Source: a virus. From it: a stretch of 33,666 nucleotides of DNA. Shown here one piece after another: positions 3,393-22,676 of the stretch. Position numbers and translations under genes: made by a program. Where the stretch lies: the UHGV virus genome UHGV-0338553. One strand, given 5' to 3'. The notes beneath the pieces are model-generated. The model was not told the origin of the DNA and ran no database searches. It was given only the letters and a program-made list of their open reading frames with translations. How positions within the stretch are numbered: the stretch's first letter is position 1; every line of letters begins with the position of its first letter.

Positions 3393-3709
3393 GCGAAACG
3401 GCGGTGTTCCAGGCGCTGAAGTCAACCGGATACCCGGTGCATCTTCTCGGCGCGCACGACGATTCGAGCCTGCCGCGAATCTCCTATTCCTTCCCGTCCG
3501 CACCCGGCTTCTTCGCCGACAGCAGGACGTACAGGCCGATGGAGCGCTGCGAAGTGCGCCTGTACACCGACCAGTACCCAGACGAAGCCGCCGAATCCGC
3601 CGTTGAAACGGCGATAGGAAGGCTTGGCTTCGCCTACGCGAAGCACCGCGTGCCGATTCCAAGCGAACGAATGCACGAGACAACGTACACGTTCACAGAC
3701 CTTAGATGA
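3389..3709 (+). CDS. Tail terminator-like protein (hypothetical)
   Basis: 106 aa. ATGA overlap with the upstream gene. It sits between the gp10-like gene and the major tail gene, the usual place for a tail terminator. Confidence 0.45.
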   Translation: MSETAVFQALKSTGYPVHLLGAHDDSSLPRISYSFPSAPGFFADSRTYRPMERCEVRLYTDQYPDEAAESAVETAIGRLGFAYAKHRVPIPSERMHETTYTFTDLR

Positions 3710-3719
3710 AAGGAACGAG

Positions 3720-4310
3720 ATGGAAAAGAAAACAGGCGTGCGCTATGGCGTGCGCAACGTATACCTTGCGTGGTTTGACGAAGCAGAAGACAAGTTCGAA
3801 ACGCCCGTTGCCCTTCCGGGATGCCGGGCGCTGAAGACCAGCCCGGAAGGCGACACGAAGAAATGGTACGCCGATGACACGGTGTACTTCATCGGCCGCG
3901 CGAACAACGGCTATAGCGGCGAACTTGAACTTGCGAAGTTTGCGCTGAAGATCATGGCGGACGCGCAGGGCTGGACATACGACGAAGCGACCGGCGTGCT
4001 GTACGAAATCGGCGGCAACGTCGTTGTGAAGCCCTTCGCCCTGCTGTTCGAAGTCGAAGGCGACCTGACCAACACGCGCTTCTGCTACTACAACTGCACG
4101 CTTGACCGACCCGAACACGAATGGGGAACCACTGAAGACGAGGTGGAGCCGACAACCGAGAAGTGCGGCATTTCGATTGACCCGTACATGATCGGCGAAA
4201 CGCCCTACATCAAGGCGATGTGCGAGTTGAGCGCCACCAACGCGTCCACGTTCGACAACTGGTTCAAATCGGTGAACCTTCCCACTGCGACGAACAGCGT
4301 CGCGGGCTAA
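3720..4310 (+). CDS. Major tail protein
   Basis: ATG at 3720 with AGGAA upstream. 196 aa. Composition and length are typical of siphovirus major tail proteins (phi13 / TP901-1 type). It precedes the chaperone and tape measure genes. Confidence 0.65.
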   Translation: MEKKTGVRYGVRNVYLAWFDEAEDKFETPVALPGCRALKTSPEGDTKKWYADDTVYFIGRANNGYSGELELAKFALKIMADAQGWTYDEATGVLYEIGGNVVVKPFALLFEVEGDLTNTRFCYYNCTLDRPEHEWGTTEDEVEPTTEKCGISIDPYMIGETPYIKAMCELSATNASTFDNWFKSVNLPTATNSVAG

Positions 4311-4322
4311 GGGGGGAACGAC

Positions 4323-4655
4323 ATGCGCGAAGTAAACACCAGCAAGGACACGAAGCTGAACATCCACGCCACTTCGATGACGTGCCTGCTGTATGAACGC
4401 GAGTTCGACGGTGCCGATATCGTCACCGACATTTCATCGATGGGGGAAACGCCGAAATTCGGCATCATGCGCCGCGCCTTGTGGGCGATGGCGAAGACGG
4501 CGGCACCTTCCGTCATACCGCCCTATTCGGCGTGGATGAACGCGAACGCCGACCTCGACTACAAGGAAACAAGCTGGATGAAAGGCGTGATGGAGGAAGC
4601 GAACAGGGAGTTTTTTCGAAGCACCGCCGAAGCTTCCGAAGTCAAGGCAGGTTAG
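4323..4655 (+). CDS. Tail assembly chaperone (gpG-like)
   Basis: AAGGGGGGA RBS. 110 aa, acidic. It lies between the major tail and tape measure genes and contains a T6 run (4611-4616) near its 3' end. Confidence 0.55.
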   Translation: MREVNTSKDTKLNIHATSMTCLLYEREFDGADIVTDISSMGETPKFGIMRRALWAMAKTAAPSVIPPYSAWMNANADLDYKETSWMKGVMEEANREFFRSTAEASEVKAG

Positions 4656-4878
4656 CGAAGTCGGCGAAGCGGCGCGCAGGTATCCGTACCACTCGATGGC
4701 GTTAGGTGCGCTCGCCATGGGCTTCAGCTACGCCGACCTGTGGGAAATGCCCTTGAACGACTACCTGATCTTCTCCGCAATCACAGCAGAAGCGAATTCG
4801 GCGGCTTCGAGCGCGGGGAGAGGAAAACGCTACAGAGAAGCGACCCAAGCCGACATTGAGAGTTTGAAAAGGATGTAG
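4612..4878 (+). CDS. Putative frameshift extension of tail assembly chaperone (gpT-like, +1 frame)
   Basis: The +1 frame is open from 4591 to 4878 and overlaps the last 65 nt of the G-like ORF. The T6 slippery run sits at 4611-4616. A G/GT pair upstream of tape measure is conserved in long-tailed phages. Confidence 0.35.
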   Translation, partial: FFEAPPKLPKSRQVSEVGEAARRYPYHSMALGALAMGFSYADLWEMPLNDYLIFSAITAEANSAASSAGRGKRYREATQADIESLKRM

Positions 4879-4884
4879 AGCGAC

Positions 4885-7476: not shown

Positions 7477-8231
7477 TCTACAACGGCTTCGACTTCTCGC
7501 TGTACATGGTGGACGAGGATATCCGCGAATCCATCCTACCCGAAACGGTTGTTGACGCGCTGGACGTTCCGGGCGCGGACGGCCAGCTGTTCAATTCCGC
7601 GACGTTCGGAACGCGCGTGATCGAGATCGACGTGCGCGTCATCCGCGAGAACAGGCGCGCGCTCAACGAACTGCTGCCATTCCTGGCATCGAAGCTGCAC
7701 AGCAGAACGCCGACGAAGCTGTACACGCGCCTGCATCCGGGGGAATACTACATCGCCATGCTGACGGGGACGATAGACTTCGAAAAGTGGTTCGGAACGG
7801 GCGGCGCGACCGTCACGTTCGTCGCCTACGACCCCGTGCGCTACGTTGACGATGACCGCACCGTGGCGCTCGGCTACGCCGCGAAGGACGTGCAGATCAT
7901 GGGAACCTACCTCGCGCGGCCTATCGTCGCAATCGACATACCCGCAGCGTGCAGCTACGTCGCCGTCAGCGACATGACCACGGGGCTTGTCATGCGAAGC
8001 GAATACGCCTTCAAGGCTGGCAACCGCGTCGTGTTCGATTGCACCGTTGGAACCGACCGCATGAAGGTTCCGCTGCTCTACGCGACCGCAACGTCAACGA
8101 CCCCGACGAAGCTTCCCATCACGCCGCAATCGCGGTGGTTCGAGTTGGAGCCGGGAACGCACACCATGCGCATACTGAACGCGTCAAGCGCGGTATCGGC
8201 GACCATGACCTACGCCGAAAGAAGGCTGTAG
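7473..8231 (+). CDS. Distal tail protein (Dit, siphovirus tail component)
   Basis: 252 aa. ATGA overlap with tape measure. Position and size fit Dit / Sipho_tail family proteins. Confidence 0.6.
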   Translation: MIYNGFDFSLYMVDEDIRESILPETVVDALDVPGADGQLFNSATFGTRVIEIDVRVIRENRRALNELLPFLASKLHSRTPTKLYTRLHPGEYYIAMLTGTIDFEKWFGTGGATVTFVAYDPVRYVDDDRTVALGYAAKDVQIMGTYLARPIVAIDIPAACSYVAVSDMTTGLVMRSEYAFKAGNRVVFDCTVGTDRMKVPLLYATATSTTPTKLPITPQSRWFELEPGTHTMRILNASSAVSATMTYAERRL

Positions 8232-8233
8232 CC

Positions 8234-10396
8234 ATGGTCGAACTGCTGGTGTACGACCGCTGGGGCGCGCAGATCGGCACGGTCACGCCCATCACCTGCA
8301 CCCGCGCCGAGGAAGTCAACGGCGAGGACACCTTGACATTCACGACACCCGTCCGGTTCGAGAAGGGCGACCGCGTTGTGTTCCAAGACGGCGGCGGCGT
8401 GTGGCACGAGCACGTGGTGACCGAAACCGACGAAAGCCGCGAGGAAGCGCGCGTGCTGAACACGGTCATCGCGGAGAACAGCCTGTGCGAGACGAACGGC
8501 GACTACGTGGAAGACCTCCGCAACCAGAACATGGCCGCGTCCGCCGCGCTTGCGAAGGCGCTTTCCGTGACCAGGTGGGAGCAGGGCGCTACGTCAAGCC
8601 TTGGAAGCAAGTCGCAGAACTTCTACCACATGAGCGCCCGCGCGGCCATCAACGCGGTGGCCGAAACATGGGGCGGCGAGGTCAGAACGGAAATCAGCGT
8701 CGGGACGGCAGGCGTTTCGCGCCGCCGCGTGTCGGTCGTGTCGCGCATCGGCGGCAACGGGTACAAGCGGTTCGAGTACAAGAAAGACCTGATATCGATC
8801 AGGCGCAAGGTCGAATCTGACGATGTTGTGACGGCGCTCTACGGCTACGGCTCCGGCCTTGCGGCCACCGACGAATCGGGAGAGGAAACGGGCGGGTTCA
8901 CGCGCAAGATCACCTTCGGCGAGGTGAACGGCGGCATGAACTACGTAGCCGACAACGAAGCCCTTCTCCTGTGGGGTCGCCCTGACGGCACGCTGCTTCC
9001 CGGCGGGCTTGCGCACGTTTTCGGCGAAGTCGAATACGACGAGTGCGAAGACCCGTCCGAACTGCTTGCGCTAACGAAAGCGGAACTGCCGAACAGGACG
9101 AAGCCGAAAGTCACCTACGAAGCGACGGTGCAGGCGCTCTGCGAAGCTGGTTTCAGGTTCGAGGGCTTTTCCTTGGGCGATGACGTGCAGATCATCGACT
9201 GGGCGTTTTCGCCCGCCCTAGAGTTGCAGGGGCGAATCCTGCGCGTCGAGTGGAACTACCGCGTGCCGTCCGAAACCGTCATCACGCTTGGCAACGTCAC
9301 CCCCGCCATTTCAGACCAGATCAACAGGCAGGCTGCGGCGTTGCAGAGCATGCGCGACCATTCGGGGGCGTGGGACAAGGCGGCGAGCGCCGACGAAAGC
9401 TACATCAGCGGCGTTATAGGAGTTATCAACGCCGTCATGAACGCGACCGGCGGGTACGTCTACATGGAACCCGGCGAGGGAATAACCGTCTACGACAGGC
9501 CGGTTGACCAGAACCCGACCATGGCGATACAGCTGAACGGCGCGGGCTTCCGCATCGCGAACAGGCGCGTCGGCGACACGTGGCAATGGCGCACGTTCGG
9601 GACTGGCGACGGCTTCAGCGCCGACGAGATAAACGCGGGCATCATACAAGGCGGTTCCAACTGGTGGAACCTCGAAACCGGCGACATGCTGTTCAAACAG
9701 GGTGGCATACGCGATAGCAAAGGAAAGAACTTTTGGGACTTGGACACCGGCGAGTTCTCCTTGTCCGCCGATGCCAAGATAGGCGACAAGACCGCCGCCA
9801 AGATAGCCCAGGATGCCGTGGACGCGCAGACGCAGCGCAGCATATTCAACAAGCTGACCAACGACGGGCAGACGCAGGGCATCTACCTTTCCGGCGGCAA
9901 GCTGTACATCAACGCAACTTACCTGAAGACAGGCATCATCAGCGACGTTTACGGAAGAAACTCGTGGAATCTCGGGAGCGGGACGCTCACGACCAACTAC
10001 ATGAAAGCGAGCAACATCGACGCGAGCGGAACGTTCGAATGCGGCACGTCATCGAACCTGCTGCGGCTCATCAACGGCGAGATTCAAGGCATAGAAAACG
10101 GTGTACAGATCGGCGTTGTCGATTTTTCGGCGCATATGAGAAACGTCAGTACCGGGCAGCTTACGACCGGGTTGCAGCTTACCGGCAACAACCACATACG
10201 CATCACCACGCCGCTTATCTCCGCTGCGGCTTCGAGCAGCGAATCAACGACAACGACGCATGCGGTGACAAAAAACTGCACCCTGCACTACATAAGCAAG
10301 ATCGACCCTAACAGCGACGGGACTATCACGTGGTGGAACGCGACGCGAAACATCAATTTTGTGGACGGCTTCTGCACGGTGTGCAACTTCGACTAA
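8234..10396 (+). CDS. Tail-associated lysin / prophage tail endopeptidase (Tal-like)
   Basis: ATG at 8234, just after the Dit stop. 720 aa. The N-terminal ~370 aa resembles Tal / Prophage_tail domain proteins. The C-terminal region is Gly/Thr/Asn-rich and fibre-like. The ORF extension from 7949 is rejected because it overlaps Dit. Confidence 0.6.
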   Translation: MVELLVYDRWGAQIGTVTPITCTRAEEVNGEDTLTFTTPVRFEKGDRVVFQDGGGVWHEHVVTETDESREEARVLNTVIAENSLCETNGDYVEDLRNQNMAASAALAKALSVTRWEQGATSSLGSKSQNFYHMSARAAINAVAETWGGEVRTEISVGTAGVSRRRVSVVSRIGGNGYKRFEYKKDLISIRRKVESDDVVTALYGYGSGLAATDESGEETGGFTRKITFGEVNGGMNYVADNEALLLWGRPDGTLLPGGLAHVFGEVEYDECEDPSELLALTKAELPNRTKPKVTYEATVQALCEAGFRFEGFSLGDDVQIIDWAFSPALELQGRILRVEWNYRVPSETVITLGNVTPAISDQINRQAAALQSMRDHSGAWDKAASADESYISGVIGVINAVMNATGGYVYMEPGEGITVYDRPVDQNPTMAIQLNGAGFRIANRRVGDTWQWRTFGTGDGFSADEINAGIIQGGSNWWNLETGDMLFKQGGIRDSKGKNFWDLDTGEFSLSADAKIGDKTAAKIAQDAVDAQTQRSIFNKLTNDGQTQGIYLSGGKLYINATYLKTGIISDVYGRNSWNLGSGTLTTNYMKASNIDASGTFECGTSSNLLRLINGEIQGIENGVQIGVVDFSAHMRNVSTGQLTTGLQLTGNNHIRITTPLISAAASSSESTTTTHAVTKNCTLHYISKIDPNSDGTITWWNATRNINFVDGFCTVCNFD

Positions 10397-10410
10397 GGAG
10401 GATTCAACCA

Positions 10411-10800
10411 ATGGGCAACATCCTGTACTACCTCGCGCACGACCCTGTAGGAAATTGCGAATGGCAGGTAAGCGACTTCGATAGATCTGCGCTCGCCAAG
10501 AACGCTGAAAACAACATCGTGTTCATAGCCGTTGACGAGAGCGGCAACCGCGAGATCGTGGACGCGTCAGAGGTCGTTGAGCCGCCCGCGATGGGGGAAC
10601 CGCTTGTTCTCGTCCAGCCTGTCTACGTTGACGAGCGCATGATGGCCACGGTAGCCGTTTTCGATGCCCTTGCGGCAGACCTGTACCCGTCCGCCGCCGT
10701 AATGACCATGAGCGCCGAAGCCGCTGATTCTGCCGCTGAAGGTGGGTTCATGGCGGCGGTCGCACGACTGAAGGGACTGGTTTATGGCAAGCAAGATTAG
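10411..10800 (+). CDS. Hypothetical tail/baseplate-associated protein
   Basis: AAGGAGGA RBS 8 nt upstream of the ATG at 10411. 129 aa. Lies in the tail-fibre region. Confidence 0.5.
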   Translation: MGNILYYLAHDPVGNCEWQVSDFDRSALAKNAENNIVFIAVDESGNREIVDASEVVEPPAMGEPLVLVQPVYVDERMMATVAVFDALAADLYPSAAVMTMSAEAADSAAEGGFMAAVARLKGLVYGKQD

Positions 10801-11839
10801 CGAAGCATGGTATCTGCGCCCGCTGACCATCGACACGGCCTACCAGCGCGCCATCGAAGACATGGTGGCTTCGCCGGAGGACGCGAAGGGCAAGGGAATC
10901 GACCTGACCCTGAAGTGCAACGGCGAAGCCGTTGACACCACGGGCTGCACGGTGATTCTCGGCTGGCGCAACCTCAACTCCGGCAAGAGCAACTCGCGCC
11001 TGTTCGATGCCGTCAGCGCGGCTTCCGGTCGATGGAAGGTCACGTACCCGACCGAAATGCTGACACCCGGCGTGGTGCTTGCGCGCGTGATCATCAAGCT
11101 TTCTGCAACCGGCAGCGTCATCACGTCAAGCCGCGAGTTCAGGATAATCGTCGAACACTCCATCACCAACGACATAACGGGCGGCTCGAACGACGATCTG
11201 TCGATGTTCCAGCAGGCCGTCGCCGACCTGACGGCGACGAACGACGCGGTGGCGAAGGCCGAGACTAAGCGGGTGGAAGCCGAGCAAGCCCGCGCCGCCG
11301 CAGAGCAGGAGCGCTTGCGCGCCGAATCGATGCGCATCGACAACGAATCGACGCGCATCGATTCCGAGACGGACAGGACAACGGCAGAGAGCGAGCGCGC
11401 CGCCGCTGAAAAGACGCGCGTCGTAAACGAGGAAGGCCGAACCCGGAGCGAAAGCGAAAGGTCGCGAGCGGAAAGCGAAAGAGCAGCCGCCGAAGAAGAC
11501 CGCGTGTCCGAATTCGCCGAGTTGAAAAGCCAATCGCAATCAGCGACGAACGCAGCAGACGGGGCGGCGAGAAAGGCCAACGCAGCCGCAGACAACGCCA
11601 ACGCCGCCGCCGCAACCGCGTCGAACGTGGTCGCGGAAGCCGTCAAGGCTCTGTCGCAGCAGGACGGCGACAGCGAAGCCGCGCAGATCGACGCTTTGGC
11701 GAAGCTTCTGCGCGAAGATTACGGATGCTTCTACCTTGCGAACACCATGTGGACGAAATCAAGCGACACGACCTATGCGGCCAACACGATCACGCTCGCC
11801 TGTTCAACCTACGCAAGCGGCAATATCACACTAGGATAG
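10784..11839 (+). CDS. BppU-like baseplate / tail fibre protein with central coiled-coil repeats
   Basis: 351 aa. The N-terminal ~150 aa is BppU_N-like. The central segment is a degenerate E/R/A-rich repeat (…SERAAAE…ESERSRAESERAAAEE…). It lies upstream of the DGR target gene. Confidence 0.5.
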   Translation: MASKISEAWYLRPLTIDTAYQRAIEDMVASPEDAKGKGIDLTLKCNGEAVDTTGCTVILGWRNLNSGKSNSRLFDAVSAASGRWKVTYPTEMLTPGVVLARVIIKLSATGSVITSSREFRIIVEHSITNDITGGSNDDLSMFQQAVADLTATNDAVAKAETKRVEAEQARAAAEQERLRAESMRIDNESTRIDSETDRTTAESERAAAEKTRVVNEEGRTRSESERSRAESERAAAEEDRVSEFAELKSQSQSATNAADGAARKANAAADNANAAAATASNVVAEAVKALSQQDGDSEAAQIDALAKLLREDYGCFYLANTMWTKSSDTTYAANTITLACSTYASGNITLG

Positions 11840-11851
11840 GAGAATAAAACC

Positions 11852-12751
11852 ATGGCAGACGTGAACTACATCACCGACAAAAACGGGAACAAGGTCAACA
11901 TCGCAGACCTGACGGCGCGCACCAACGCATCGACGGCGCTGCTCGAATCGGAGTACAACCGCCAGCTTGCCGACAACGTGTACGCTGGGCGCGACATTAG
12001 CACCATCACGGCGCTTGCGAGCGAGATCGCTTCGGCAGGGAGCATCCCCGCGTTCCTGAACGCCCGCGCGAAGGCCGGAAACTTCAACGGGCTGCGCATC
12101 GGCGACTGGACTGATATCGTCCTTTCGAGTGGCGTAACCATGCGCTACCAGATAGCCGCCTTCGACCACTACTACAACTGCGCCGATGCGGCCATGGGAC
12201 ACCACATCGTCATGGTTCCGACCTCCACCCCGGCAGTCACCGGCGACTACGCCATCAACGGAAGCTACATCTACTGGAACACCACCAACACCAACAACGG
12301 AACAGCCGACGAGAGCAACCCGTATCTTGCGAGCAACCTCCACGCCTGGGAAACCGGCGTGTTCCTCCCGCTCATGCCCACGGCTTGGCAGAACGTAATG
12401 CGCAACCATCGCAGCCTTGTTGAAACGCGGTACTCGGCTTCCGGCGCGCTCACCGACAGCACAAGTTGGAAATGGGCGGACTTGGGCAAAATCTGGTCGC
12501 CGTCCGAAATGGAAGTGTACGGTTGCCCGATCTGGGGGACGAAGGGCTACGGTCAGGGCATGGACAGCCAGTTCCCGATATTCCGCGAGACGAAGAACCG
12601 CATCAAAGGTCGCATCTATTGGTGGCTTCGCTCCGTGTCGGGAGGTTCTTCGGTTAACGCGTGCTGCGTCGGCCACGGTGGCTATGCCTACTACACCTCC
12701 CCGACGTACACGTGGGTTCGCCCCTTGCCCTGCTTCCTCATTGGAGCGTAA
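11852..12751 (+). CDS. DGR target (variable) protein, probable receptor-binding / fibre-tip protein with C-terminal C-type-lectin-like variable region
   Basis: AGGAGAA RBS. 299 aa. The last ~43 codons (…GRIYWWLRSVSGGSSVNACCVGHGGYAYYTSPTYTWVRPLPCF) are the VR copy of a downstream TR. All VR/TR differences fall on TR adenines, mostly in AAC/AAT codons. Confidence 0.8.
   Translation: MADVNYITDKNGNKVNIADLTARTNASTALLESEYNRQLADNVYAGRDISTITALASEIASAGSIPAFLNARAKAGNFNGLRIGDWTDIVLSSGVTMRYQIAAFDHYYNCADAAMGHHIVMVPTSTPAVTGDYAINGSYIYWNTTNTNNGTADESNPYLASNLHAWETGVFLPLMPTAWQNVMRNHRSLVETRYSASGALTDSTSWKWADLGKIWSPSEMEVYGCPIWGTKGYGQGMDSQFPIFRETKNRIKGRIYWWLRSVSGGSSVNACCVGHGGYAYYTSPTYTWVRPLPCFLIGA
12608..12737 (+). 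repeat. DGR variable repeat (VR)
   Basis: 130 bp, with 118/130 identity to 13326..13455. All 12 mismatches are positions where TR has A and VR has T, G or C. Both copies share the GC-rich 3' end GTGGGTTCGCCCCTTGCCCTG. Confidence 0.85.
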
Positions 12752-12774
12752 GAGCCATCTACCGTATACTTATC

Positions 12775-12797
12775 TGCGCCCGCCTTGCGCGGGCGCA
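12775..12797 (+). promoter_or_regulatory. GC-rich hairpin downstream of VR (9-bp stem TGCGCCCGC/GCGGGCGCA, loop CTTGC); a second 6-bp-stem hairpin lies at 12801..12815
   Basis: A perfect inverted repeat can be read directly. It lies 38 bp 3' of the VR end, where DGR target-recognition hairpins sit in characterised DGRs. Confidence 0.4.
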
Positions 12798-12835
12798 ATT
12801 ACCCGCGAAGCGGGTCGGTTTTTGGAGGGGTGTTT

Positions 12836-13303
12836 TTGAGCGTCTACCAACGAAAGCGCAACCTGTCTGACTACGAATTCTACTCGCGCGCAATCGCGAT
12901 ACGCGTCGAGGTGAACAAGCTTATGGCATCGCCGAACGTGGTGCCGAAAAGCTACCGGCTTCTGAACGCGGTGCCGACCGTCGAGACGGCGCGTTCCATC
13001 GTCTACAACATAACGCGAGCCGACCAGTTCTTCCCGAACACGTCCTTCAACGTCCTTGAGCGCCGGAAATACCTCACGCTTGCAATCGCCGACTGCGAAC
13101 AGCTGTGCCTTGACTTCCAATGCCTGCTCGAACTCGGCCTTCCGATCAACGTGAACAGGTTCGATGCGGTGGTTGAATCAATCGAGTTGGAGATATCGCT
13201 GCTGAAGGGCGCGCGAAAGAACGTGAAGCTGGTCGGCAAGCAGAGCGCCGAAGACCTCATTGAATCGACCGCCGCCGAACTGGAAAGGCTCCGTGCGCTA
13301 TAA
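12836..13303 (+). CDS. avd: Putative DGR accessory variability determinant (Avd-like four-helix-bundle protein)
   Basis: A small basic protein encoded between VR and TR. A TTG at 12836 is preceded by GGAGGGG. The alternative ATG at 12785 lies inside the VR-downstream hairpin. Assignment rests on position and weak similarity to the S23 / four-helix-bundle family. Confidence 0.45.
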   Translation: MSVYQRKRNLSDYEFYSRAIAIRVEVNKLMASPNVVPKSYRLLNAVPTVETARSIVYNITRADQFFPNTSFNVLERRKYLTLAIADCEQLCLDFQCLLELGLPINVNRFDAVVESIELEISLLKGARKNVKLVGKQSAEDLIESTAAELERLRAL

Positions 13304-13325
13304 TGGGCGAACGTTACGCTTTGCT

Positions 13326-13455
13326 GGTCGCATCAATTGGTGGCTTCGCTCCGTGTCGGGAGGTTCTTCGGTTAACGCGTGCTACGTCAACAACAATGGC
13401 AATGCCAACTACAACTCCCCGACGAACACGTGGGTTCGCCCCTTGCCCTGATTCC
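13326..13455 (+). ncRNA. DGR template repeat (TR)
   Basis: Cognate of the VR. Contains 25 adenines, 12 of which differ in VR. The AAC AAC AAT GGC AAT GCC AAC TAC AAC stretch is in frame with the VR codons. The predicted ORFs 13260..13451 and 13303..13671 across it are judged non-coding. Confidence 0.85.
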
Positions 13456-13559
13456 GCTGAACGGCCAGACCGAGTAGGGACATGCCCGAAAGCAGAGCCT
13501 GTAGAGGAAGGAAGGCGTGACGTTCGGGCTTGGGCCCGTGAATCTGCACCCCGCGAGGG

Positions 13560-14846
13560 ATGGCGGACGCTGCTTGCATGGCGGCGCGCTTCGGCGTTCA
13601 GCGCCGTTTCATGCCATCTTCTCATGCGGATACCGAACGCTGCGCTGCAATCCGTGCGGGGTGCCTTTTGAAATCCGAGGAACGAAGGCGGGCGCGCCGC
13701 GCGCGGCGCGAGGAAAAGCGCGCGGAGAAGCGCCGCGAGCGCTTGGCATCCTGCACGATGGAAAACGTCGCCGACCTGAACAGCCTTTACCGCGCCGCCG
13801 TTAAGGCTAAGAACGGCATCGCGTGGAAATCGTCGGTTCAAAGGTACGAGAAGGACGTGCTGCGCAACATCGTCAAGGCGCGCCGCGACCTTCTTGCCGG
13901 AAACGACGTTCGGCGAGGGTTCCACGAGTTCCAGCTGTACGAACGCGGGAAGCTTCGCAACATTTCGAGCGTCCATATCTCCGAAAGGGTGATTCACAAG
14001 TCGCTGTCGGTGAACGCCCTCGTCCCGGCGCTCACGCCCTCGTTCATCTTGGACAACTCGGCCAACACGAAAGGCCGTGGCACCGACTTCGCCATCAGAA
14101 GGCTGAAGAAGCAGCTTGTCGCCCACTACCGCGCGCACGGGAAAAGCGGGTACATCCTCCTTATCGACTTCAGCAACTACTTCGCGTCCATCGCGCACGA
14201 CCCGCTGAAGGAGATCGTTCGAGCCGCGCTTGACGATGAAAGGATTGTCGCGCTGACGCACGGCTTCATCGACGCGTGCGGCGACGTGGGCTTGGGTCTT
14301 GGCAGCGAGCCGAACCAGATATGCGCCGTTGCGTTCCCCTCGTCAATCGACCATTACGTGACCGAAATGCTGGGCGTGGAAGCCTACGGGCGCTACATGG
14401 ACGATTCCTACTGCCTGCATGAATCGAAGGAGTACCTTCAGGTCGTTCTTGCGCTCATAGAGCGGAAATGCGCGGAACTTGGAATCGAGATCAACCGGAA
14501 GAAGACCCACATCGTGAAGCTGTCACACGGTTTCACGTGGCTGAAGAAGAAGATAAGCTACGGCGACAACGGCAAGATCGTCATGCGCCCATGCCGGGAA
14601 TCCATCACGCGAGAGCGCAGGAAGCTGAAGAAGATGGCTCGTTTCGTCGCTTCCGGGGACATGACCTTTGAGCAAGTCGAAAGATCGTACCAGTCTTGGC
14701 GCGGCTCGATGCTCCGGCTCGATGCGCATAAGACGGTGCTTGCGATGGACGCGCTGTTCGCGTCGTTGTTCGAATCGAAAAACCTCCCACGGGGGGGGGG
14801 TCTGATTAACTGCGCTTTCCCGGCTGCGCGGCGCTTGGCCGCATGA
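13560..14846 (+). CDS. DGR reverse transcriptase
   Basis: RT domain with LIDFSNYFASI (motif 2-like), GLGLGSEPNQ (DGR-type motif 4) and RYMDDSY (YxDD). It lies directly 3' of the TR. The start is uncertain. The ORF opens at 13560, and alternative starts are the TTG at 13668 (GGGGTG upstream) or the ATG at 13758. A G10 homopolymer sits at 14791-14800 near the 3' end. Confidence 0.85.
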   Translation: MADAACMAARFGVQRRFMPSSHADTERCAAIRAGCLLKSEERRRARRARREEKRAEKRRERLASCTMENVADLNSLYRAAVKAKNGIAWKSSVQRYEKDVLRNIVKARRDLLAGNDVRRGFHEFQLYERGKLRNISSVHISERVIHKSLSVNALVPALTPSFILDNSANTKGRGTDFAIRRLKKQLVAHYRAHGKSGYILLIDFSNYFASIAHDPLKEIVRAALDDERIVALTHGFIDACGDVGLGLGSEPNQICAVAFPSSIDHYVTEMLGVEAYGRYMDDSYCLHESKEYLQVVLALIERKCAELGIEINRKKTHIVKLSHGFTWLKKKISYGDNGKIVMRPCRESITRERRKLKKMARFVASGDMTFEQVERSYQSWRGSMLRLDAHKTVLAMDALFASLFESKNLPRGGGLINCAFPAARRLAA

Positions 14847-14850
14847 GCGG

Positions 14851-14878
14851 CGAAAACCCCTGACACGCTTTCTATCCT
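14851..14878 (+). repeat. 28-nt intergenic motif CGAAAACCCCTGACACG(C/G)TTTCTATCCT, copy 1
   Basis: 27/28 identical to 32942..32969. Both copies are intergenic: RT-to-lysis-cassette here, terminase-to-portal there. Confidence 0.7.
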
Positions 14879-14906
14879 GTTAATAGGGAAACAACAGGAT
14901 AGAAAG
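14868..14906 (+). promoter_or_regulatory. Perfect 14-bp-stem hairpin (CTTTCTATCCTGTT / AACAGGATAGAAAG, 11-nt loop) after the RT gene
   Basis: Read directly from the sequence. There is no downstream T-tract, so it is not a canonical intrinsic terminator. The 3' arm overlaps the SD (GAAAGGG) of the next gene. The 5' arm belongs to a 28-nt motif repeated at 32942..32969. Confidence 0.5.
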
Positions 14907-14915
14907 GGCGGTGCA

Positions 14916-15101
14916 ATGGATTCAGAAAACGAAGCTTCTGCCGAAATCAATTCGCTGAAGCTGCTTCTGGCGCAAACGGACTACCAGGCTCTGAAGTTCT
15001 CTGACGGCGCGATGGCCGAAGACGAGTACGCGCCAATCCGGCAGAAGCGCGCGGAGTGGCGCACGCGAATCAACGAACTTGAATCGCAAGCTGCGGCCTA
15101 G
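14916..15101 (+). CDS. Hypothetical small protein (first gene of lysis cassette; XkdX-like by size and position)
   Basis: 61 aa. SD AAGGG 8 nt upstream. Confidence 0.4.
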   Translation: MDSENEASAEINSLKLLLAQTDYQALKFSDGAMAEDEYAPIRQKRAEWRTRINELESQAAA

Positions 15102-15113
15102 CGACGTGAAGCC

Positions 15114-15467
15114 GTGATCGATCAGCTAATCAAAAACCCCGACATGATGCGCGAGATAGGCTTTTTCTGGGTCTTCGTCATCGCGCTGATAGCCGCGAGC
15201 GCCTATTTCGCGCCCGTCATCAAACAGTATCTGGTCACGAAGATCAAGAGTTCCGCCCGCATCGAACAGGTCATAGAGAACTGCACGGCGGCGGTCAACA
15301 ACAACTCCGAAGCCCTGCGGAACAACTCCGAAGCCCTGCACGCAAACAACGACGAGCGTGACACGACCGTCGCTATCTTGCGCGAACACGACCGCGCTTC
15401 AGACCTGCGTTTCCAAGAGCAGAACGCTGCGCTGACCAGAATCGAAAACAAGCTACAAGGAAGGTAA
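15114..15467 (+). CDS. Membrane-anchored coiled-coil protein (XhlA-like / holin-associated)
   Basis: GTG start. One N-terminal TM helix (FFWVFVIALIAASAYFAPV). The coiled-coil C-terminus carries a direct NNSEALRNNSEAL repeat. Confidence 0.4.
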   Translation: MIDQLIKNPDMMREIGFFWVFVIALIAASAYFAPVIKQYLVTKIKSSARIEQVIENCTAAVNNNSEALRNNSEALHANNDERDTTVAILREHDRASDLRFQEQNAALTRIENKLQGR

Positions 15468-15471
15468 ACCT

Positions 15472-15765
15472 ATGAGCGAAAACGAGAACATTGAAGTGAT
15501 GGCCGACGTTGATTCGGAGGACTTGAAGGTTTCCGGCGGCACGATCGCGCGAACCGTCGCGTTCGCGATAGTGTGGCTGAACCAGCTTTTCGTCTTCTTC
15601 GGCGCTCCCACGCTCGATATCGACACTGCGGCGCTGTACGACATAATCAGCGGCGTTGCCACGTTCTCCGTGTCCGCATGGAACTACTGGAAGAACAACA
15701 GCTGGCGCATTCCCGCCCTCGTCGGCGACGCGGTGAAGGATTCCTACGGCCATGCTGCGGACTAG
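15472..15765 (+). CDS. Putative holin (two TM helices)
   Basis: AAGGAAGG RBS. 97 aa with two hydrophobic helices. Immediately upstream of the lysin genes. Confidence 0.55.
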   Translation: MSENENIEVMADVDSEDLKVSGGTIARTVAFAIVWLNQLFVFFGAPTLDIDTAALYDIISGVATFSVSAWNYWKNNSWRIPALVGDAVKDSYGHAAD

Positions 15766-16495
15766 CAGCGCTGGGCGCTCCCACGTCCGCAAGCGCGGTC
15801 GCATCGTGTCTGACGGCCAGATCGCCGCCATATTCCTTGCGCTTCTACTCCTTTCCCTCCTGTGCGTCGGCTTGGCCGCTTGCGCCGTCCATTTCGCAAG
15901 CGGCCAACCGACAGCGAAAGAGGGCGCGGAAAGCGAGACGCTTCCCGTCAGCGATATACCCATGCCGAAGGTCATCCCGGCAGGGCGAACCATGCCGCTT
16001 TACCTGCAAGACGATGTTCAGTGGGCGCACATCGAGTACGCAGGCGACAGCACCGTTGCCGAAAGCGGGTGCGGGCTTACGTGCGCCGCCATGGCGCTCG
16101 AATACCTCACGAACCAGAAGACAACGCCGCGCGATCTGCAAGGCATCGTCGGCGACACATGCACGGTTCACGGGGTGAACGACATGGCCTTGTTCGGCGA
16201 CTACATGGAACAGGCCTACGGCCTTTCGCAATCAGAAATCTACTACGACCTGAACCAGGCCGTCGCCGACGTTGCGGACGGCTCCGTTGTCTTCGCTTCG
16301 CTGACGGGTCGCTTCGGAGATTCCACCTACGGCGGACACATCGTCGCAATATGGCACGTCGATGGTGATGCGGTATGCGTGCGCGACCCTGCTTCCGGCG
16401 CGAATTCGCAGCGCAGCTTCACGCGCGACGAGTTGGCGAACGTCGAATGGTCTTACTTCTACTCACTCACGAACGAAGGGCTTTCCTATGCTTAA
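15752..16495 (+). CDS. C39-like papain-fold cysteine peptidase with lipoprotein-type signal peptide (probable cell-wall endopeptidase)
   Basis: N-terminal LLLLSLLCVGLAAC lipobox-like signal. Catalytic-looking Cys in ESGCGLTCAAMALEYL and His in GGHIVAIWH (Peptidase_C39_2-like). Confidence 0.55.
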   Translation: MLRTSSAGRSHVRKRGRIVSDGQIAAIFLALLLLSLLCVGLAACAVHFASGQPTAKEGAESETLPVSDIPMPKVIPAGRTMPLYLQDDVQWAHIEYAGDSTVAESGCGLTCAAMALEYLTNQKTTPRDLQGIVGDTCTVHGVNDMALFGDYMEQAYGLSQSEIYYDLNQAVADVADGSVVFASLTGRFGDSTYGGHIVAIWHVDGDAVCVRDPASGANSQRSFTRDELANVEWSYFYSLTNEGLSYA

Positions 16496-17429
16496 CGGTA
16501 TCGACATTTCATCTTGGCAGACCGGCATCGACCTTTCGGTGGTTCCTTGCGACTTCGTTGTCATCAAGGCGACCGGCGGCATCGGCTACGTGAACCCCGA
16601 TTGCGACCGCGCCTACCAGCAAGCGAAGGCGCAAGGAAAGAAACTTGGCTTCTACCACTACGCGCGCGAGAAGGGTTACAAGGGCAGCGCCGCCGACGAA
16701 GCGCGCTTCTTCATCGACAGCTGTCGCAACTACTTTGGCGAAGCGATTCCCGTGCTTGACTGGGAGGAAGAACTGTCGGCAGGCGTTTCGTGGGCTAAAG
16801 AATTCCTTGATGCCGTCTACGCCGAAACGGGCGTGAAGCCGCTTCTTTACGCGAGTAAGAGCGTGCTGCGCGAATACGACTGGTCTTCCGTGGCGAACGC
16901 CGGTTACGGTCTGTGGTTCGCGCAGTATGCGAACTACAACGCGACGGGCTACCAGGATTCGCCATGGACTGACAACGGCGGCATCGGCGCATGGCCTTTC
17001 CCTGCGATGTTCCAGTATTCGAGCGCTGGAAGCCTTCCAGGCTGGAACGGCTCGCTTGATCTGAACATATTCTTCGGCGATGAAAGCGCATGGGACGCAT
17101 ACGCTTCCGCCGGTTCTGGCTCGACCGAACCTAATGCGGAGCCGGTGAAAAGCGTTGACGATATCGCCCATGAAGTCATCGCGGGGGCGTGGGGGAACGG
17201 CGACGAGCGCCGCGCCCGCCTTGCCGCTGCGGGATACGACTTCGATACGGTTCAAGGCCGCGTGAACGATCTGCTGGGCGCGAATCGGCAGCGCATCTAC
17301 ACCGTCGTTGCTGGCGACACTCTATCAGGCATTGGCGCGAAGCTGGGCGTTGATTGGCGCAGCATCGCTTCGAGCAATGGCATTTCAAGCCCGTACACGA
17401 TCTATCCGGGCGACCAGTTGACCTACTAG
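16488..17429 (+). CDS. Endolysin: GH25 muramidase + CW_7 (Cpl-7-like) repeat + C-terminal LysM
   Basis: ATG at 16488 with AAGGG upstream. The track ORF from 16362 overlaps the previous gene and is rejected. GIDISSWQ…GFYHY are GH25 motifs. SVDDIAHEVIAGAWGNGDERRARLAAAGYDFDTVQGRVNDL is a CW_7 repeat. YTVVAGDTLSGIGAKLGV…YPGDQL is LysM. Confidence 0.8.
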   Translation: MLNGIDISSWQTGIDLSVVPCDFVVIKATGGIGYVNPDCDRAYQQAKAQGKKLGFYHYAREKGYKGSAADEARFFIDSCRNYFGEAIPVLDWEEELSAGVSWAKEFLDAVYAETGVKPLLYASKSVLREYDWSSVANAGYGLWFAQYANYNATGYQDSPWTDNGGIGAWPFPAMFQYSSAGSLPGWNGSLDLNIFFGDESAWDAYASAGSGSTEPNAEPVKSVDDIAHEVIAGAWGNGDERRARLAAAGYDFDTVQGRVNDLLGANRQRIYTVVAGDTLSGIGAKLGVDWRSIASSNGISSPYTIYPGDQLTY

Positions 17430-17438
17430 AAAGGAATC

Positions 17439-17780
17439 ATGATGGCAACCAGAAAGACAACCACCGCGAAGGCTACGCCAGCAAAGGACGTAAAAGCGAC
17501 ACCGGCTGAAGCCCCGCAGGACGCACCGGTCGAGGCCGCACAGGCACCGGCTGAAGCCCCGCAGGACGCACCGGTCGAAGACCAGTACCCTGTCATCGTT
17601 TGCAGCGAAGACACGCGCATCACGAAAATCGTCCTGCGCGACAATCCATCCGTTGAGAACGATAACGATGCCTTGATTGTTCCCGTTGGGACGAAGCTGC
17701 GCGCTGTTGAGGACATGGGCGAGTGGACGAAGCTTACCCACGACCTTTTCATCATGTCCAAGTTCGTCAAGAAGCTTTAA
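17439..17780 (+). CDS. Hypothetical protein: disordered Pro/Ala-rich N-terminus with tandem repeat + C-terminal SH3-like fold
   Basis: AAAGGA RBS. 113 aa. The DNA carries a 45-bp-period tandem repeat (17503..17579) encoding APAEAPQDAPVE twice. Last gene before the terminator. Confidence 0.45.
   Translation: MMATRKTTTAKATPAKDVKATPAEAPQDAPVEAAQAPAEAPQDAPVEDQYPVIVCSEDTRITKIVLRDNPSVENDNDALIVPVGTKLRAVEDMGEWTKLTHDLFIMSKFVKKL
17503..17579 (+). repeat. Tandem repeat, 2 copies of a 32-nt core with 45-bp period
   Basis: CCGGCTGAAGCCCCGCAGGACGCACCGGTCGA occurs at 17503-17534 and 17548-17579. Confidence 0.8.
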
Positions 17781-19419
17781 GTGATACGACCAGCCCAAAA
17801 CCATGTTCAAGCATGAGTATCGGCGTTCCGTTTTCGGTGTACAACGTCTCAAAAGGATACCCGTTTGACGTTCGTTTTGACATGCGATTGGGGCACCATT
17901 TGGAAGTTTCACGAACGGCCTGTTGATCAGGCCGTTCGTGTTTTTTCAAAGCAAGTTCTATCTCATATTGCGTGCTTTCGCACGAATCAAAGTTCATCAC
18001 GGCCACGGCGGTGCTTTCATACAGCCAAACTTTAGATACAAAAGTAAGCGTGATCTGCTCGTCCGACAACGCGCCCTTCGACATATCAGAGAAGAACGCT
18101 CGGAGTTCTTCTCTGCTGACACTGTTTTGCTCGCGCTTCAATTCCTCTATGCGCTTCTCCAAAGCGCGCTCTTGCGCATCGAGCGCGGCAATTTTCGGCT
18201 TTACGTGATTAAAATCAAGGCCTTCAGCGACCGCTGACAAAAGATTGTCGCGCTGCTTTTTTACCGCTCTTATGTCTTTCCTTACTGCTTCTATGGTTGC
18301 CTTCGACTGACGTTCATCCCTAAACTGGATATGCCTGTCAATTAGATAATCAACCAGCGCGGCATCGCGTAGCATTTCGCGCACGCCTGAAACAACTCCT
18401 TGTTCTACAGTCTCTTTATTGAACGACCCCAAGCACGCCTTGCGTTTCCCCCGGCAGCTATAACGCCAGTATTCGATGCCGCTTCCGCCAATTGCGGTTT
18501 CGCCGTGCATAGGCTCTTTGCACTTGGAGCATATTAGCTTCCCGGAAAGCAGGTAGTCGGCATTCGTCTTCAAACGCCTTCTGAATCCCAACTTTTCGAT
18601 GCAAGACAGCTTTTGCGACATGCTCACAATCGCTGGCATACCGTCTTCTATGTATACAAGGGGAACGGGTCGCCCGAGATCATCAAGCACGTCATTTCCA
18701 GCTTCGTCTTTTTTTACACCCCACATATATACGCCCGCGTAGCGCACGTTCTTCAACATGCTTACAACGAAACCGTATCCGGGGTCTTTGCCGCGCGCCG
18801 TTTTCACTCCGATACTCAACAGCCAATCCAGTATCTGCTTCGGCGCTACACCCGAAAGAAAATCGACGTGGATGCGTTTTGCAATGGGCGCTTTCTCCGG
18901 GTCAAGCGTGATCTTGTCGCCATCGTGGCTATAACCGTACAACGGATAGCCCAGGTACTGGCACTTCCTAGCTTTGCCAAGCATACCACGCATCGTATCT
19001 TCCGCGCTCTGCCGTGATCTGACTTCGGCGAACAGCGCGTTCAAAGCCTTCGTGCTGGTCGCTTCGATTGACGTACCGGCGATGTTCTCTTTCACCGATT
19101 CGAAAGTCACTCCGCCGTTCTTGCGCAGCACGTGTTCGTAATAGTATTGCTCCTCGATGTTCCGCGCGAACCTATCCATCTTCCAAACAAGGATTATTTC
19201 AAACATGCCCGTCTTTGCATCCTCGATCATGCGCAAGAAATTCGGGCGGTCATCGCTTCTGCCACTCATGGCGTAGTCGCAATATTGCATCACGACAGTG
19301 TACCCGTGGCGCTCGGCGTATTTATTGCATTCATAAAGCTGATCTTCTATGGACGCATCGCGCTGTTTGTCACAACTGAATCGCGCATAGATGGCTACAC
19401 GAATTAGCTTGCGAGACAT
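17767..19419 (-). CDS. Large serine recombinase (phage integrase)
   Basis: N-terminal resolvase catalytic domain (RVAIYARFSCDKQ…SIEDQ), recombinase domain, Cys-rich zinc ribbon (CSKCKEP…CRGKRKAC), and coiled-coil motif. 550 aa. The C-terminal ~55 aa may be extension. Confidence 0.9.
   Translation of the reverse strand: MSRKLIRVAIYARFSCDKQRDASIEDQLYECNKYAERHGYTVVMQYCDYAMSGRSDDRPNFLRMIEDAKTGMFEIILVWKMDRFARNIEEQYYYEHVLRKNGGVTFESVKENIAGTSIEATSTKALNALFAEVRSRQSAEDTMRGMLGKARKCQYLGYPLYGYSHDGDKITLDPEKAPIAKRIHVDFLSGVAPKQILDWLLSIGVKTARGKDPGYGFVVSMLKNVRYAGVYMWGVKKDEAGNDVLDDLGRPVPLVYIEDGMPAIVSMSQKLSCIEKLGFRRRLKTNADYLLSGKLICSKCKEPMHGETAIGGSGIEYWRYSCRGKRKACLGSFNKETVEQGVVSGVREMLRDAALVDYLIDRHIQFRDERQSKATIEAVRKDIRAVKKQRDNLLSAVAEGLDFNHVKPKIAALDAQERALEKRIEELKREQNSVSREELRAFFSDMSKGALSDEQITLTFVSKVWLYESTAVAVMNFDSCESTQYEIELALKKHERPDQQAVRETSKWCPNRMSKRTSNGYPFETLYTENGTPILMLEHGFGLVVSLKAS
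17910..17946 (+). terminator. Rho-independent terminator for the late/lysis operon
   Basis: 13-bp perfect stem CACGAACGGCCTG/CAGGCCGTTCGTG, loop TTGAT, followed by TTTTTT. It lies inside the 3' coding region of the minus-strand integrase ORF. Confidence 0.7.
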
Positions 19420-22359: not shown

Positions 22360-22676
22360 GCGAAGAAGAATACATGAACGTCATCTACAGGAAGACCGAA
22401 CAGGGCATGCGGTGCGAATTCGCCGTCCACTCCACGCTTGTACGCGAGTTCGTGGAGGAAATCATAGACAACTGCTTCGACGCGAAGGTTGAGTGCGACC
22501 CGAACTTTGCGCTGGGCTTCGCCGCAGCCATCGACGCGTTCACCCATGGCCGCATCGACTTCAGAGGTGCGGTTCCGACCGTGAACGACGCGTGGCACGA
22601 CGTGAACGACGTGACGGGCAGGCCGTGCCGCGTGACCGACTGCATGCGCGTCTACTGCGACGGGGCGGTGTCGTAG
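22356..22676 (+). CDS. Hypothetical protein
   Basis: ATGA overlap. 106 aa. Confidence 0.5.
   Translation: MSEEEYMNVIYRKTEQGMRCEFAVHSTLVREFVEEIIDNCFDAKVECDPNFALGFAAAIDAFTHGRIDFRGAVPTVNDAWHDVNDVTGRPCRVTDCMRVYCDGAVS

Follow-up and report, generated by a model that had tools for sequence, protein, structure and literature searches.

A probably active diversity-generating retroelement in a temperate Eggerthella lenta siphovirus

Layout of the locus and its two repeats

The window, which is the whole stretch of viral DNA that was analysed (33,666 nucleotides; UHGV virus genome UHGV-0338553), carries between positions 11852 and 14906 a target gene, an accessory gene, a pair of direct repeats and a reverse transcriptase (RT) gene. 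These components of a putative diversity-generating retroelement (DGR), together with the associated RNA and DNA structures, are as follows.

11852-12751, + strand: target (variable protein) gene, 299 aa, with an N-terminal helical part and a C-terminal DUF6273/C-type lectin-fold domain that carries the VR
12608-12737, + strand: variable repeat (VR), delimited by direct-repeat search and natural polymorphism; the positions seen varying span 12614-12710
12711-12737, + strand: GC-rich, invariant 3' end of the VR, IMH-like, without variation in 12 genomes and including a fixed C at 12733 (A in the TR)
12775-12797, + strand: hairpin H1, with a 9-bp GC-rich stem and the invariant loop CTTGC
12801-12825, + strand: hairpin H2, ACCCGC-GAA-GCGGGT, with a GNA triloop, and a run of T after it (terminator scan)
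12836-13303, + strand: accessory gene, Avd-like, 155 aa, with a TTG start after GGAGG that matches the start of homologues and the gene calls of other assemblies
13296-13301, + strand: TATAAT, overlapping the accessory gene stop codon, an inferred candidate -10 element for a TR-spacer-RT transcript
13312-13322 with 13512-13522, + strand: long-range duplex bracketing the TR, predicted by RNAalifold
13326-13455, + strand: template repeat (TR), with 25 adenines and nine AAY codons in register with the VR
13460-13684, + strand: Rfam RT-2 RNA (RF03077), DGR spacer RNA, the structured part of which ends at about 13664
13668-14846, + strand: RT gene, 392 aa in this copy, with a TTG start, motif 4 LGSEPNQ at 14298-14318 and YMDD at 14394-14405
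14791-14800, + strand: poly-G tract (G10 in this copy) where the conserved RT core ends; the frame in which a short C-terminal tail is read depends on the length of the tract

The repeat search returned a single 130-nt direct repeat (12608-12737 and 13326-13455), the two copies of which are 91% identical. Base-by-base comparison confirmed the report of a sequence-only reading of this DNA that the copies differ at 12 positions, with A always in the TR and T, G or C in the VR. Given that 25 of the 130 nt of the TR are A, the probability that all 12 mismatches would fall on A is 1.8e-10 (hypergeometric). Eleven of them hit the first or second codon position in the 299-aa ORF at 11852-12751, the last 48 codons of which contain the VR.

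The same reading had attributed all 12 mismatches to adenine-specific mutagenesis. The overall pattern holds, but one mismatch has a different origin: at 12733/13451, all 12 phage copies compared below have C in the VR and A in the TR, and a VR-C/TR-A difference of this type also occurs in relatives whose codon at that place is GGN. Because it is fixed in this way, the 12733/13451 mismatch marks the boundary of VR/TR homology and is not a product of mutagenesis.

Proteins and RNA structures of the element

The C terminus of the target protein belongs to DUF6273 (Pfam) and models as a C-type lectin fold that matches many CLec domains as well as TvpA, a DGR variable protein of Treponema; a sequence search of the target against the PDB found nothing. 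The VR, at the 3' end of the target ORF, falls inside this modelled fold, as is characteristic of DGRs, and the suggested check of the target C terminus against CLec folds thus came out positive. The proposed location in a tail-fibre module was apt with respect to receptor binding, but the region is better named a baseplate-attached receptor-binding module.

For the accessory protein, AF2 predicted a four-helix bundle followed by a C-terminal helix (pLDDT 85.7). The best Foldseek matches of this model were 2gsc/2rld (TM 0.86), which belong to the Avd-like 23S-rRNA-IVP family, and bAvd, the accessory protein chains 8ub7_B/C (TM 0.80-0.84). An Avd-like gene between the VR and the TR, as previously proposed, is thus supported by the modelled bundle, and the placement of an accessory gene between target and TR that typifies DGRs is indicated here by position and predicted fold. 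Searches with the protein alone and with a 35-sequence profile against Pfam, NCBIfam, PHROGs, PADLOC and the PDB gave nothing significant. PF05635 was touched by 2 of the 35 homologues, at E 0.002, and one homologue had been named a 23S rRNA-intervening sequence protein family member by its source. Fold comparison was the only informative search for this protein.

The RT matches RVT_1 and phrog_1423 (E 3.6e-74), and its best PDB match is the BPP-1 DGR RT (bRT; 8ub7_A, E 1.9e-14), compared with 3.5e-5 for a group II maturase. In the alignment, the bRT residues F66, R74, I76, G182 and Q187, which were described as active-site and fingertip residues in the bRT cryo-EM study, are kept. YMDD is present in 118 of 120 RT homologues, and motif 4 reads LGSEPNQ in 111 of the 120, so that N stands in this clade where the canonical GxxxSQ has S. 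By PDB match and alignment, with a DGR RT as the nearest relative, the Q of motif 4 and the fingertip residues, the enzyme is of DGR type. The existence of an RT ORF with YMDD downstream of the TR therefore stands, but its supposed start at 13560 (428-aa ORF) does not: that ORF was a mechanical one, and the first 108 nt that follow the ATG at 13560 lie inside the RT-2 RNA. The start conserved in relatives is an NTG at 13668 (TTG in this copy), within ATG/GTG/TTG-AAC-TCC-GAG, and the N termini of relatives read MNSEERR. A third candidate, the ATG at 13758, was rejected because it is CTT in relatives.

The length of the poly-G tract ranged from G7 to G10 among 11 near-identical copies, most of which have G8, and a tract of G6-G11 was found in 100 of 100 scorable relatives. 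A role of tract length as an on/off switch of the RT, or in fusing it to a conserved extension, was rejected, since the tails are short and unconserved in any frame. The perfect 14-bp inverted repeat at 14868-14906, at which the interval drawn by the sequence-only reading ends, was likewise rejected as a part of the DGR, being not conserved in relatives.

Downstream of the VR, the DNA fold of 12738-12836 had a z score of -3.4. The H1 core, CCGCCTTGCGCGG, was invariant in 14 related loci aligned, and the outer stem showed compensatory changes (GCGCC/GGCGC, GGCGA/TCGCC, TAGA/TCTA and GATGCC/GGCATC). H2 is kept in relatives with a GAA or GCA loop; it is terminator-like and a candidate DGR target hairpin. 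The published DGR hairpin pattern is a 7- to 10-bp GC-rich stem with a 4-nt GRNA loop, 4-34 nt from the VR, and H1 and H2, which are 38 and 64 nt from the VR and have CTTGC and GAA/GCA loops, fall outside the distance and loop parts of it.

The RF03077 match is full length (model positions 1-222) and scored 129.2 bits, the gathering score being 40; RT-2 follows the TR directly in the window and in 20 of 20 related loci scanned. In the duplex bracketing the TR, 94% of cells were paired, compared with 51-62% when the arms were slid, and three pairs showed compensatory change; the duplex is present in 103 loci, 31 of which have one uncompensated C.C. RNAalifold also offered GGAA in the spacer (13506-13509) as a candidate partner for UUCC at the 3' end of the TR (13452-13455), a pairing that is invariant and hence without covariation support. 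RNAduplex comparison of the TR 3' end with the spacer gave long pairings that were inconsistent between loci and located no priming site with confidence. The TATAAT is kept in 17 of 18 aligned loci and in 103 of 108 loci, although the last Avd residue varies; because a sigma-70 consensus scan of 11700-15000 found no promoter, it stays a candidate -10 element only.

Natural variation and its interpretation

Evidence of activity was sought in differences between assemblies, and is therefore comparative. The near-identical set comprised 12 genomes, namely the window and eleven copies, one of them in an E. lenta chromosome. Among these genomes 24 VR positions were polymorphic, 23 of them at TR adenines, and the single off-pattern polymorphism (12679), at a TR thymine, occurred in one contig of 2.6x coverage. 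The TR was identical in 10 of 11 near-identical genomes, and in 10 of 10 reliable ones, the exception being a 1-nt gap in a contig of 1.3x coverage. Against the prophage in the E. lenta chromosome AP025575.1, 21 differences were found over 16,048 bp (99.87% identity); 16 of the 21 lay in the VR, all 16 at TR adenines, and none in the TR. The sequence-only reading had proposed read mapping, with support to come from VR polymorphism confined to TR adenines and an unchanging TR; approximated with independent public assemblies, that is the result obtained.

The same confinement is seen in the protein. The 90%-identity cluster of the target protein has 738 members. A TR adenine falls at position 1 or 2 of 14 VR codons, and across 15 full-length target variants 13 of these codons vary, while no other VR codon does; elsewhere in these proteins just 2 singleton changes occur. 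Among Coriobacteriia genomes with the same architecture, the VR lies about 740 nt upstream of the TR in 50 of the 51 loci with enough flank, and all mismatches are at TR adenines in 37 of those 51. A megablast search of 11852-14906 against 50,697 GenBank phage records gave no match, so the phage is absent from that collection. An exact-pattern scan for the VR/TR 5' core found none in IMG/VR and 3 contigs only in JGI metagenomes, one of which, a divergent relative, was excluded.

Taken from sequence comparison, these results make it highly probable (about 95%) that the element is a canonical, active DGR of a temperate E. lenta siphovirus. There is direct support for its anatomy, for the assignment of its parts to families by sequence and fold, for the A-specific, directional variation of the VR in natural populations and for the invariance of the TR.

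The A-specific differences between TR and VR could instead be relics of ancestral activity in a decayed DGR. The unusual G10 of this copy, against G8 in most, alters the RT C-terminal tail and would fit such decay, as would four related loci (L003, L004, L005 and L017) with many non-A mismatches, which suggest that decay has occurred in some lineages. However, genomes that are 99.9% identical over 16 kb each have a different VR while the TR and everything else are the same, all ORFs are intact, and the G tract lies beyond the conserved RT core; inactivity is accordingly considered very improbable.

Far less probability still attaches to an ordinary gene-fragment duplication beside an unrelated RT (from a group II intron, a retron or a defence system), with recombination and selection as the sole sources of VR variability. 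The match to the NCBIfam model of group II maturases (E 3.6e-15) and weak PADLOC matches to defence RTs that might be cited for it are expected of any RT domain. The specific models fell far short of their cut-offs, at 55.9 bits against 300 for group II TIGR04416 and 32 against 235 for retron St85, as did the Drt models, and PADLOC gave only generic weak RT matches. An Rfam scan of the whole window found no group II intron or retron RNA, and the best solved relative is a DGR RT, in agreement with the original assignment of the enzyme. Recombination cannot confine substitutions to TR adenines and leave the TR invariant. Assembly artefact, in which mis-assembled repeat copies or sequencing error would generate the VR differences, deserves equally little credence: some contigs do have low coverage (1.3x and 2.6x), and one has the 1-nt TR gap, but a finished E. 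lenta chromosome shows the same pattern, as do contigs 20-390 kb long that come from independent studies, and collapsed repeats would yield a VR resembling the TR and would not put T, G or C at just the adenine positions.

For the active DGR, a mechanism can be proposed in which four elements, namely the RNA intermediate, cis-priming by the spacer, a part for the hairpins and an influence on host range, are inferred by carrying them over from phage BPP-1. RNA of the TR (13326-13455) and the adjoining RT-2 spacer (13460 to about 13664) would be bound by the RT and the Avd-like protein, and cDNA synthesis would begin at the TR 3' end, the TR being copied faithfully save at adenines, where any nucleotide could be inserted. 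At the 3' end of the target gene, the cDNA would then take the place of the homologous VR (12608-12737), with crossover in the invariant GC-rich end (12711-12737), probably aided by the two conserved hairpins that follow closely. Some 13 codons, most of them AAY, would thus be randomised on the ligand-binding face of a baseplate-mounted, C-type lectin-fold receptor-binding protein, and the outcome would be diversified host recognition.

A more speculative and unlikely proposal is that Coriobacteriia phages have DGRs of a mechanistic subtype of their own. In that case, a large, multi-helix RT-2 spacer would replace the BPP-1 type, and its closing helix, ending 3 nt before the RT start, may gate RT translation; the TR would be clamped by the duplex that starts 10 nt downstream of TATAAT, and the slippage-prone poly-G at the RT 3' end would be a contingency switch, by which either the element or the lysis genes that lie downstream would be tuned.

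Relation to known elements

DGRs are well understood and very common in gut phages, and as a DGR this element is nothing new in kind. It does offer an unusually clean natural demonstration: in many human gut samples the phage is 99.9% identical apart from its receptor-binding tip, which differs in almost every sample. In addition, a function is assigned to the orphan Rfam motif RT-2, and a conserved poly-G tract is flagged for DGR specialists. The BPP-1 cryo-EM structure shows a duplex that brackets the TR, and a second, sequence-unrelated example of such a duplex is provided here. E. lenta matters for gut drug metabolism, and phages able to retarget their receptor-binding protein are relevant to manipulating it.

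Relative to BPP-1, the RT resembles bRT only weakly overall (E 1.9e-14), carries a basic extension of about 30 aa at its N terminus, and has NQ in place of SQ in motif 4; the accessory protein differs from BPP-1 Avd by an additional C-terminal helix and has a pI of only 8.4. The spacer RNA is RT-2, with about 205 structured nt, whereas that of BPP-1 is RT-10, a different Rfam family, and the single GRNA tetraloop hairpin of BPP-1 contrasts with two downstream hairpins here, with CTTGC and GNA loops. Treponema denticola TvpA (PDB 2y3c) has 9% sequence identity to the target and is a bacterial surface lipoprotein, whereas the target is a phage baseplate protein. DUF6273 has previously been linked to DGR targets of gut Firmicutes phages, namely tentaclins, mtd-like targets and those of Faecalibacterium prophages (PMC10743442), and a C-type lectin-fold DUF6273 that carries the VR is common to both. 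In tentaclins, however, the DUF6273 domain is N-terminal and is followed by Ig-like domains (PMC10743442), whereas here the VR is at the C terminus of a protein that is short (299 aa) and has no Ig-like domains.

The closest precedent is the report by Buttimer et al. (2022) of DGRs in E. lenta prophages of clades 2, 3, 4, 7 and 10, with the genes mtd, avd and ert (PMC8778435). Those elements have a 130-bp TR and VR of >90% identity, and clade members are nearly identical except in the VR; experimental VR change was described for another E. lenta prophage than the window's, the clade 4 DSM2243phi4 (PMC8778435). The host species and the order target-VR, avd-like gene, TR and RT in a siphovirus tail-lysis region are shared, and the window fits that description in its 99.87% identity to the AP025575.1 prophage, with the differences concentrated in the VR. 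The identification is thus correct yet already known, this type of element in E. lenta prophages having been published in 2022 (PMC8778435); to that account, which is without them, the spacer RNA, the hairpins, the RT start and the poly-G tract are added here.

Adenine-specific variation of the repeat pair

A repeat search of the window returned a single 130-nt direct repeat with 91% identity, comprising the variable repeat (VR, 12608-12737) and the template repeat (TR, 13326-13455). Base-by-base comparison gave 12 mismatches, with A in TR at all 12 and T, G or C in VR; on this point the sequence-only reading was exact. TR holds 25 adenines per 130 nt, and the probability of all 12 mismatches falling on adenines was 1.8e-10 (hypergeometric). 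The final 48 codons of the 299-aa target ORF (11852-12751) hold VR, 11 of the 12 changes being at codon positions 1 or 2, and nine AAY codons appear in TR when it is taken in this register.

Public assemblies were compared in place of read pile-ups. Over window positions 1852-17899 (16,048 bp), a prophage on the Eggerthella lenta chromosome AP025575.1 showed 99.87% identity, with 21 differences; 16 of these were inside the 130-nt VR, all 16 at TR adenines, those outside VR were two SNPs and a homopolymer length change, and the TR did not differ. The addition of ten further near-identical contigs from independent gut metagenomes gave 12 genomes, among which there were 11 different VRs. TR adenines accounted for 23 of the 24 polymorphic VR positions, the sole exception being 12679, in a contig of 2.6x coverage, and TR was unchanged in 10 of the 11 near-identical copies, the remaining copy having a single-base gap in a 1.3x contig. 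The predicted combination of VR polymorphism at TR adenines with a constant TR was thus found, as approximated by assemblies. The 90%-identity cluster of the target protein has 738 distinct members, including E. lenta WP_244368613.1. Of the VR codons, 14 have a TR adenine at their first or second position; among 15 full-length target variants, 13 of these codons varied, with up to nine residues each, and no other VR codon did. The remaining 250 residues had two singleton substitutions only. Read from assembled sequences, this pattern is characteristic of adenine-specific mutagenic retrohoming that is directional and still ongoing, and we place the probability that the element is an active diversity-generating retroelement (DGR) at about 0.95. 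One member of the target cluster, E. lenta P0362 (WP_220149939.1), is 339 aa long owing to a frameshift inside VR, a natural allele that destroys the target C-terminus.

The mutable span observed in the 12 genomes was 12614-12710, and the remaining 12711-12737 segment was GC-rich and invariant, analogous to the IMH, the GC-rich VR 3' end of the Bordetella phage BPP-1 DGR. All 12 mismatches had initially been attributed to mutagenesis; their adenine specificity stood, but the mismatch 12733 C/13451 A was constant across the 12 genomes. Distant relatives also have C in VR and A in TR at this site, where the codon is GGN and any base would be silent. Since the difference is fixed even where any base is silent, it is read as the end of the transferred sequence. 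Separately, TR adenine 13361 (VR 12643), the last base of a GGA glycine codon, where any change would be silent, was unchanged in all 11 distinct VRs, which hints at context-dependent mutagenesis or may be due to chance.

A scan of species-representative genomes gave 438 loci, the best 80 of which were nearly all from Collinsella and other Coriobacteriia. Among the 51 loci with enough flank, VR lay ~740 nt upstream of TR in 50, and every mismatch was at a TR adenine in 37. Four related loci (L003, L004, L005, and L017) had 22 to 40 TR/VR mismatches, only about half of them at adenines, and the TR of another, L014 (3570-3698), had lost several canonical AAC adenines; these five elements are probably decaying or recombined.

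Reverse transcriptase and accessory protein

The reverse transcriptase (RT) ORF with YMDD proposed downstream of the repeats was present, matching Pfam RVT_1 (4e-13) and PHROG 1423 "reverse transcriptase" (3.6e-74). Its assignment to the DGR type, rather than to group II introns or retrons, was supported by the solved structures, among which the best sequence match was the BPP-1 DGR RT (bRT, 8ub7_A; E 1.9e-14), with a group II maturase next at 3.5e-5. A cryo-EM study of BPP-1 placed F66, R74, I76, G182, Q187, and I181 among the residues contacting the template base or incoming nucleotide; in the 8ub7_A alignment, the first five are kept in the window RT and I181 is conservatively replaced by L. 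Matches to the NCBIfam group II, retron, and Drt models were all far under their cut-offs, PADLOC gave generic RT matches only, and Rfam detected no group II intron or retron RNA in the whole window. More than 3,700 RT homologues were found at E<1e-10, and motif 4 was LGSEPNQ in 111 of 120 homologues.

The identity of the RT ORF following TR was upheld, but its start, previously placed at ATG 13560, required correction. ATG 13560 falls inside an RNA motif, RT-2 (13460-13684), and was rejected, as was ATG 13758, which reads CTT in relatives. Across the 18 aligned loci, the conserved start was ATG, GTG, or TTG at 13668, followed by AAC/AAA-TCC-GAG, and homologues begin with MNSEERRAARR; the RT gene is therefore assigned to 13668-14846.

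The accessory protein (gene 12836-13303) had no significant sequence match in any library, either as a single sequence or as a profile. AlphaFold (pLDDT 85.7) models it as a four-helix bundle carrying an additional helix at the C-terminus; the best Foldseek matches to this model were 2gsc and 2rld (TM 0.86), which belong to the Avd-like "23S rRNA intervening sequence protein" family; it also matched bAvd, the Avd of the BPP-1 ribonucleoprotein (8ub7_B/C; TM 0.80 to 0.84, probability 1.0). PF05635 was touched by 2 of 35 homologues (E 0.002), and one homologue carries the 23S rRNA intervening sequence protein name in its source record. The predicted fold (TM 0.80 to 0.86) thus supports the earlier suggestion of an Avd-like gene between target and TR.

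RNA and DNA elements around the retroelement

The elements in and around the TR-RT region and downstream of VR were as follows.

12775-12797, hairpin H1, after the target stop codon, invariant core CCGC-CTTGC-GCGG (loop CTTGC)
12801-12815, hairpin H2, after the target stop codon, CCCGC-GAA-GCGGG followed by a T run
13312-13322 with 13512-13522, predicted 11-bp duplex bracketing TR, its first strand upstream of TR (RNAalifold)
13452-13455 with 13506-13509, predicted pairing of the TR 3' end, UUCC with GGAA (RNAalifold)
13460-13684, RT-2 RNA (RF03077), directly 3' of TR, full-length Rfam match (129 bits versus a gathering score of 40)
14791-14800, poly-G tract, G10 in the window, ending the conserved RT core

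RT-2 was found at the same place in all 20 related loci scanned, where it ended ~75 nt ahead of the tblastn hit of an RT query starting at ATG 13758. Weinberg et al. reported RT-1 to RT-19 as orphan motifs located close to RT genes; they assigned only RT-10, the BPP-1 spacer, to a DGR and speculated that others of the set might serve other DGRs. Because RT-2 fills the spacer position of an active DGR, it appears to be a DGR spacer RNA.

RNAalifold, applied to TR and its flanks, predicted both pairings where the Rfam model leaves a stretch unpaired. In the bracketing duplex, 94% of cells were paired, versus 51 to 62% with the partner slid, and three pairs showed compensatory change; the duplex was recognisable in 103 loci, 31 of which had one uncompensated C.C. 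The "cPRT Stop" duplex in the DGR RNA of BPP-1 is similar. The UUCC:GGAA pairing reaches 7 bp in relatives and is invariant, so that it has no covariation support, and RNAduplex gave no consistent pairing between the TR 3' end and the spacer. As a template:primer duplex, it would place initiation beside A13451, which would fit the non-transfer of that position to VR. A perfect TATAAT (13296-13301), which overlaps the accessory gene stop codon and was kept in 103 of 108 loci, precedes the core of the upstream duplex strand by 8 nt and 13312 by 10 nt. It may act as the -10 element of a separate transcript for TR and RT; a consensus scan of this region found neither a full sigma-70 consensus nor a -35 consensus.

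Between the target and accessory genes (12765-12825), a conserved TATACT is followed by H1 and H2. The outer stem of H1 has compensating changes in four lineages, and the H2 loop is GCA in some relatives, which fits a GNA triloop. Published phage DGR hairpins have 7- to 10-bp stems and GRNA tetraloops 4 to 34 bp from VR; H1 and H2 are conserved but off this pattern in loop and distance. DNA mini-hairpins of the d(GCGNAGC) type are very stable. A perfect 14-bp inverted repeat with an 11-nt spacer (14868-14906; CTTTCTATCCTGTT / AACAGGATAGAAAG) lies between the RT stop codon and the next small ORF. It lacks a T run and was not found when 19 more distant relatives were checked; possible roles are as a binding site for a protein or as a phage-specific terminator.

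All 100 related loci retaining the MDALY/F anchor had the poly-G tract, whose length ranged from 6 to 11 and was not preserved modulo 3. The near-identical phage copies had G7 (two), G8 (seven), G9 (one), and G10 (one), and part of this variation may be homopolymer sequencing error. Tract length alters only the C-terminal tail that follows; these tails were short, with no conserved peptide in any frame, so the tract is no on/off switch of the RT core. Conservation of a GGG-codon run in a GC-rich genome suggests instead a role at the nucleotide level.

Phage genome and known systems

The window looks like the complete, circularly permuted, 33.7-kb genome of a temperate siphovirus, with the following content.

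10-540, portal C-terminal fragment, at the window start
Capsid gene, tape measure, Dit, and tail proteins
BppU_N protein and the DGR
Holin, C39-like peptidase, and GH25-CW_7-LysM lysin
17767-19419, minus strand, large serine recombinase
HTH repressor
22493-23878, tyrosine-recombinase-family protein
31225-33666 region, TerL, near the window end

Upstream of the target, the BppU_N gene encodes a charged, repetitive coiled coil (11290-11420) with ESER/AEQER-type 21-nt periodic repeats, and this region contains a 17-nt palindrome (11324-11364). The match to the integrated E. lenta prophage ends at 17899, which falls inside the mechanically called serine recombinase ORF, ~44 codons from its 3' end, so the integrase coding region may contain attP.

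Buttimer et al. (2022; PMC8778435) reported DGRs in E. lenta prophage clades 2, 3, 4, 7, and 10, with the order mtd-avd-TR-ert, and observed experimental VR change in a clade 4 prophage in chemostat culture. Their clade 7 has a 130-bp TR/VR with >90% identity, and its members are near-identical outside VR. Since the window fits this description and an E. lenta strain with a sequenced chromosome carries its prophage form, the finding is correct but already known; its interest comes mainly from the additional features, namely RT-2 in the role of a DGR spacer RNA, the TR-bracketing duplex, the two hairpins downstream of VR, and the poly-G tract. The element departs from the BPP-1 prototype in degree: the window RT has a basic N-terminal extension of ~30 aa and LGSEPNQ in place of GxxxSQ at motif 4, the accessory protein has an extra helix and a pI of 8.4, the spacer RNA is from a different family, and the hairpin pattern downstream of VR differs.
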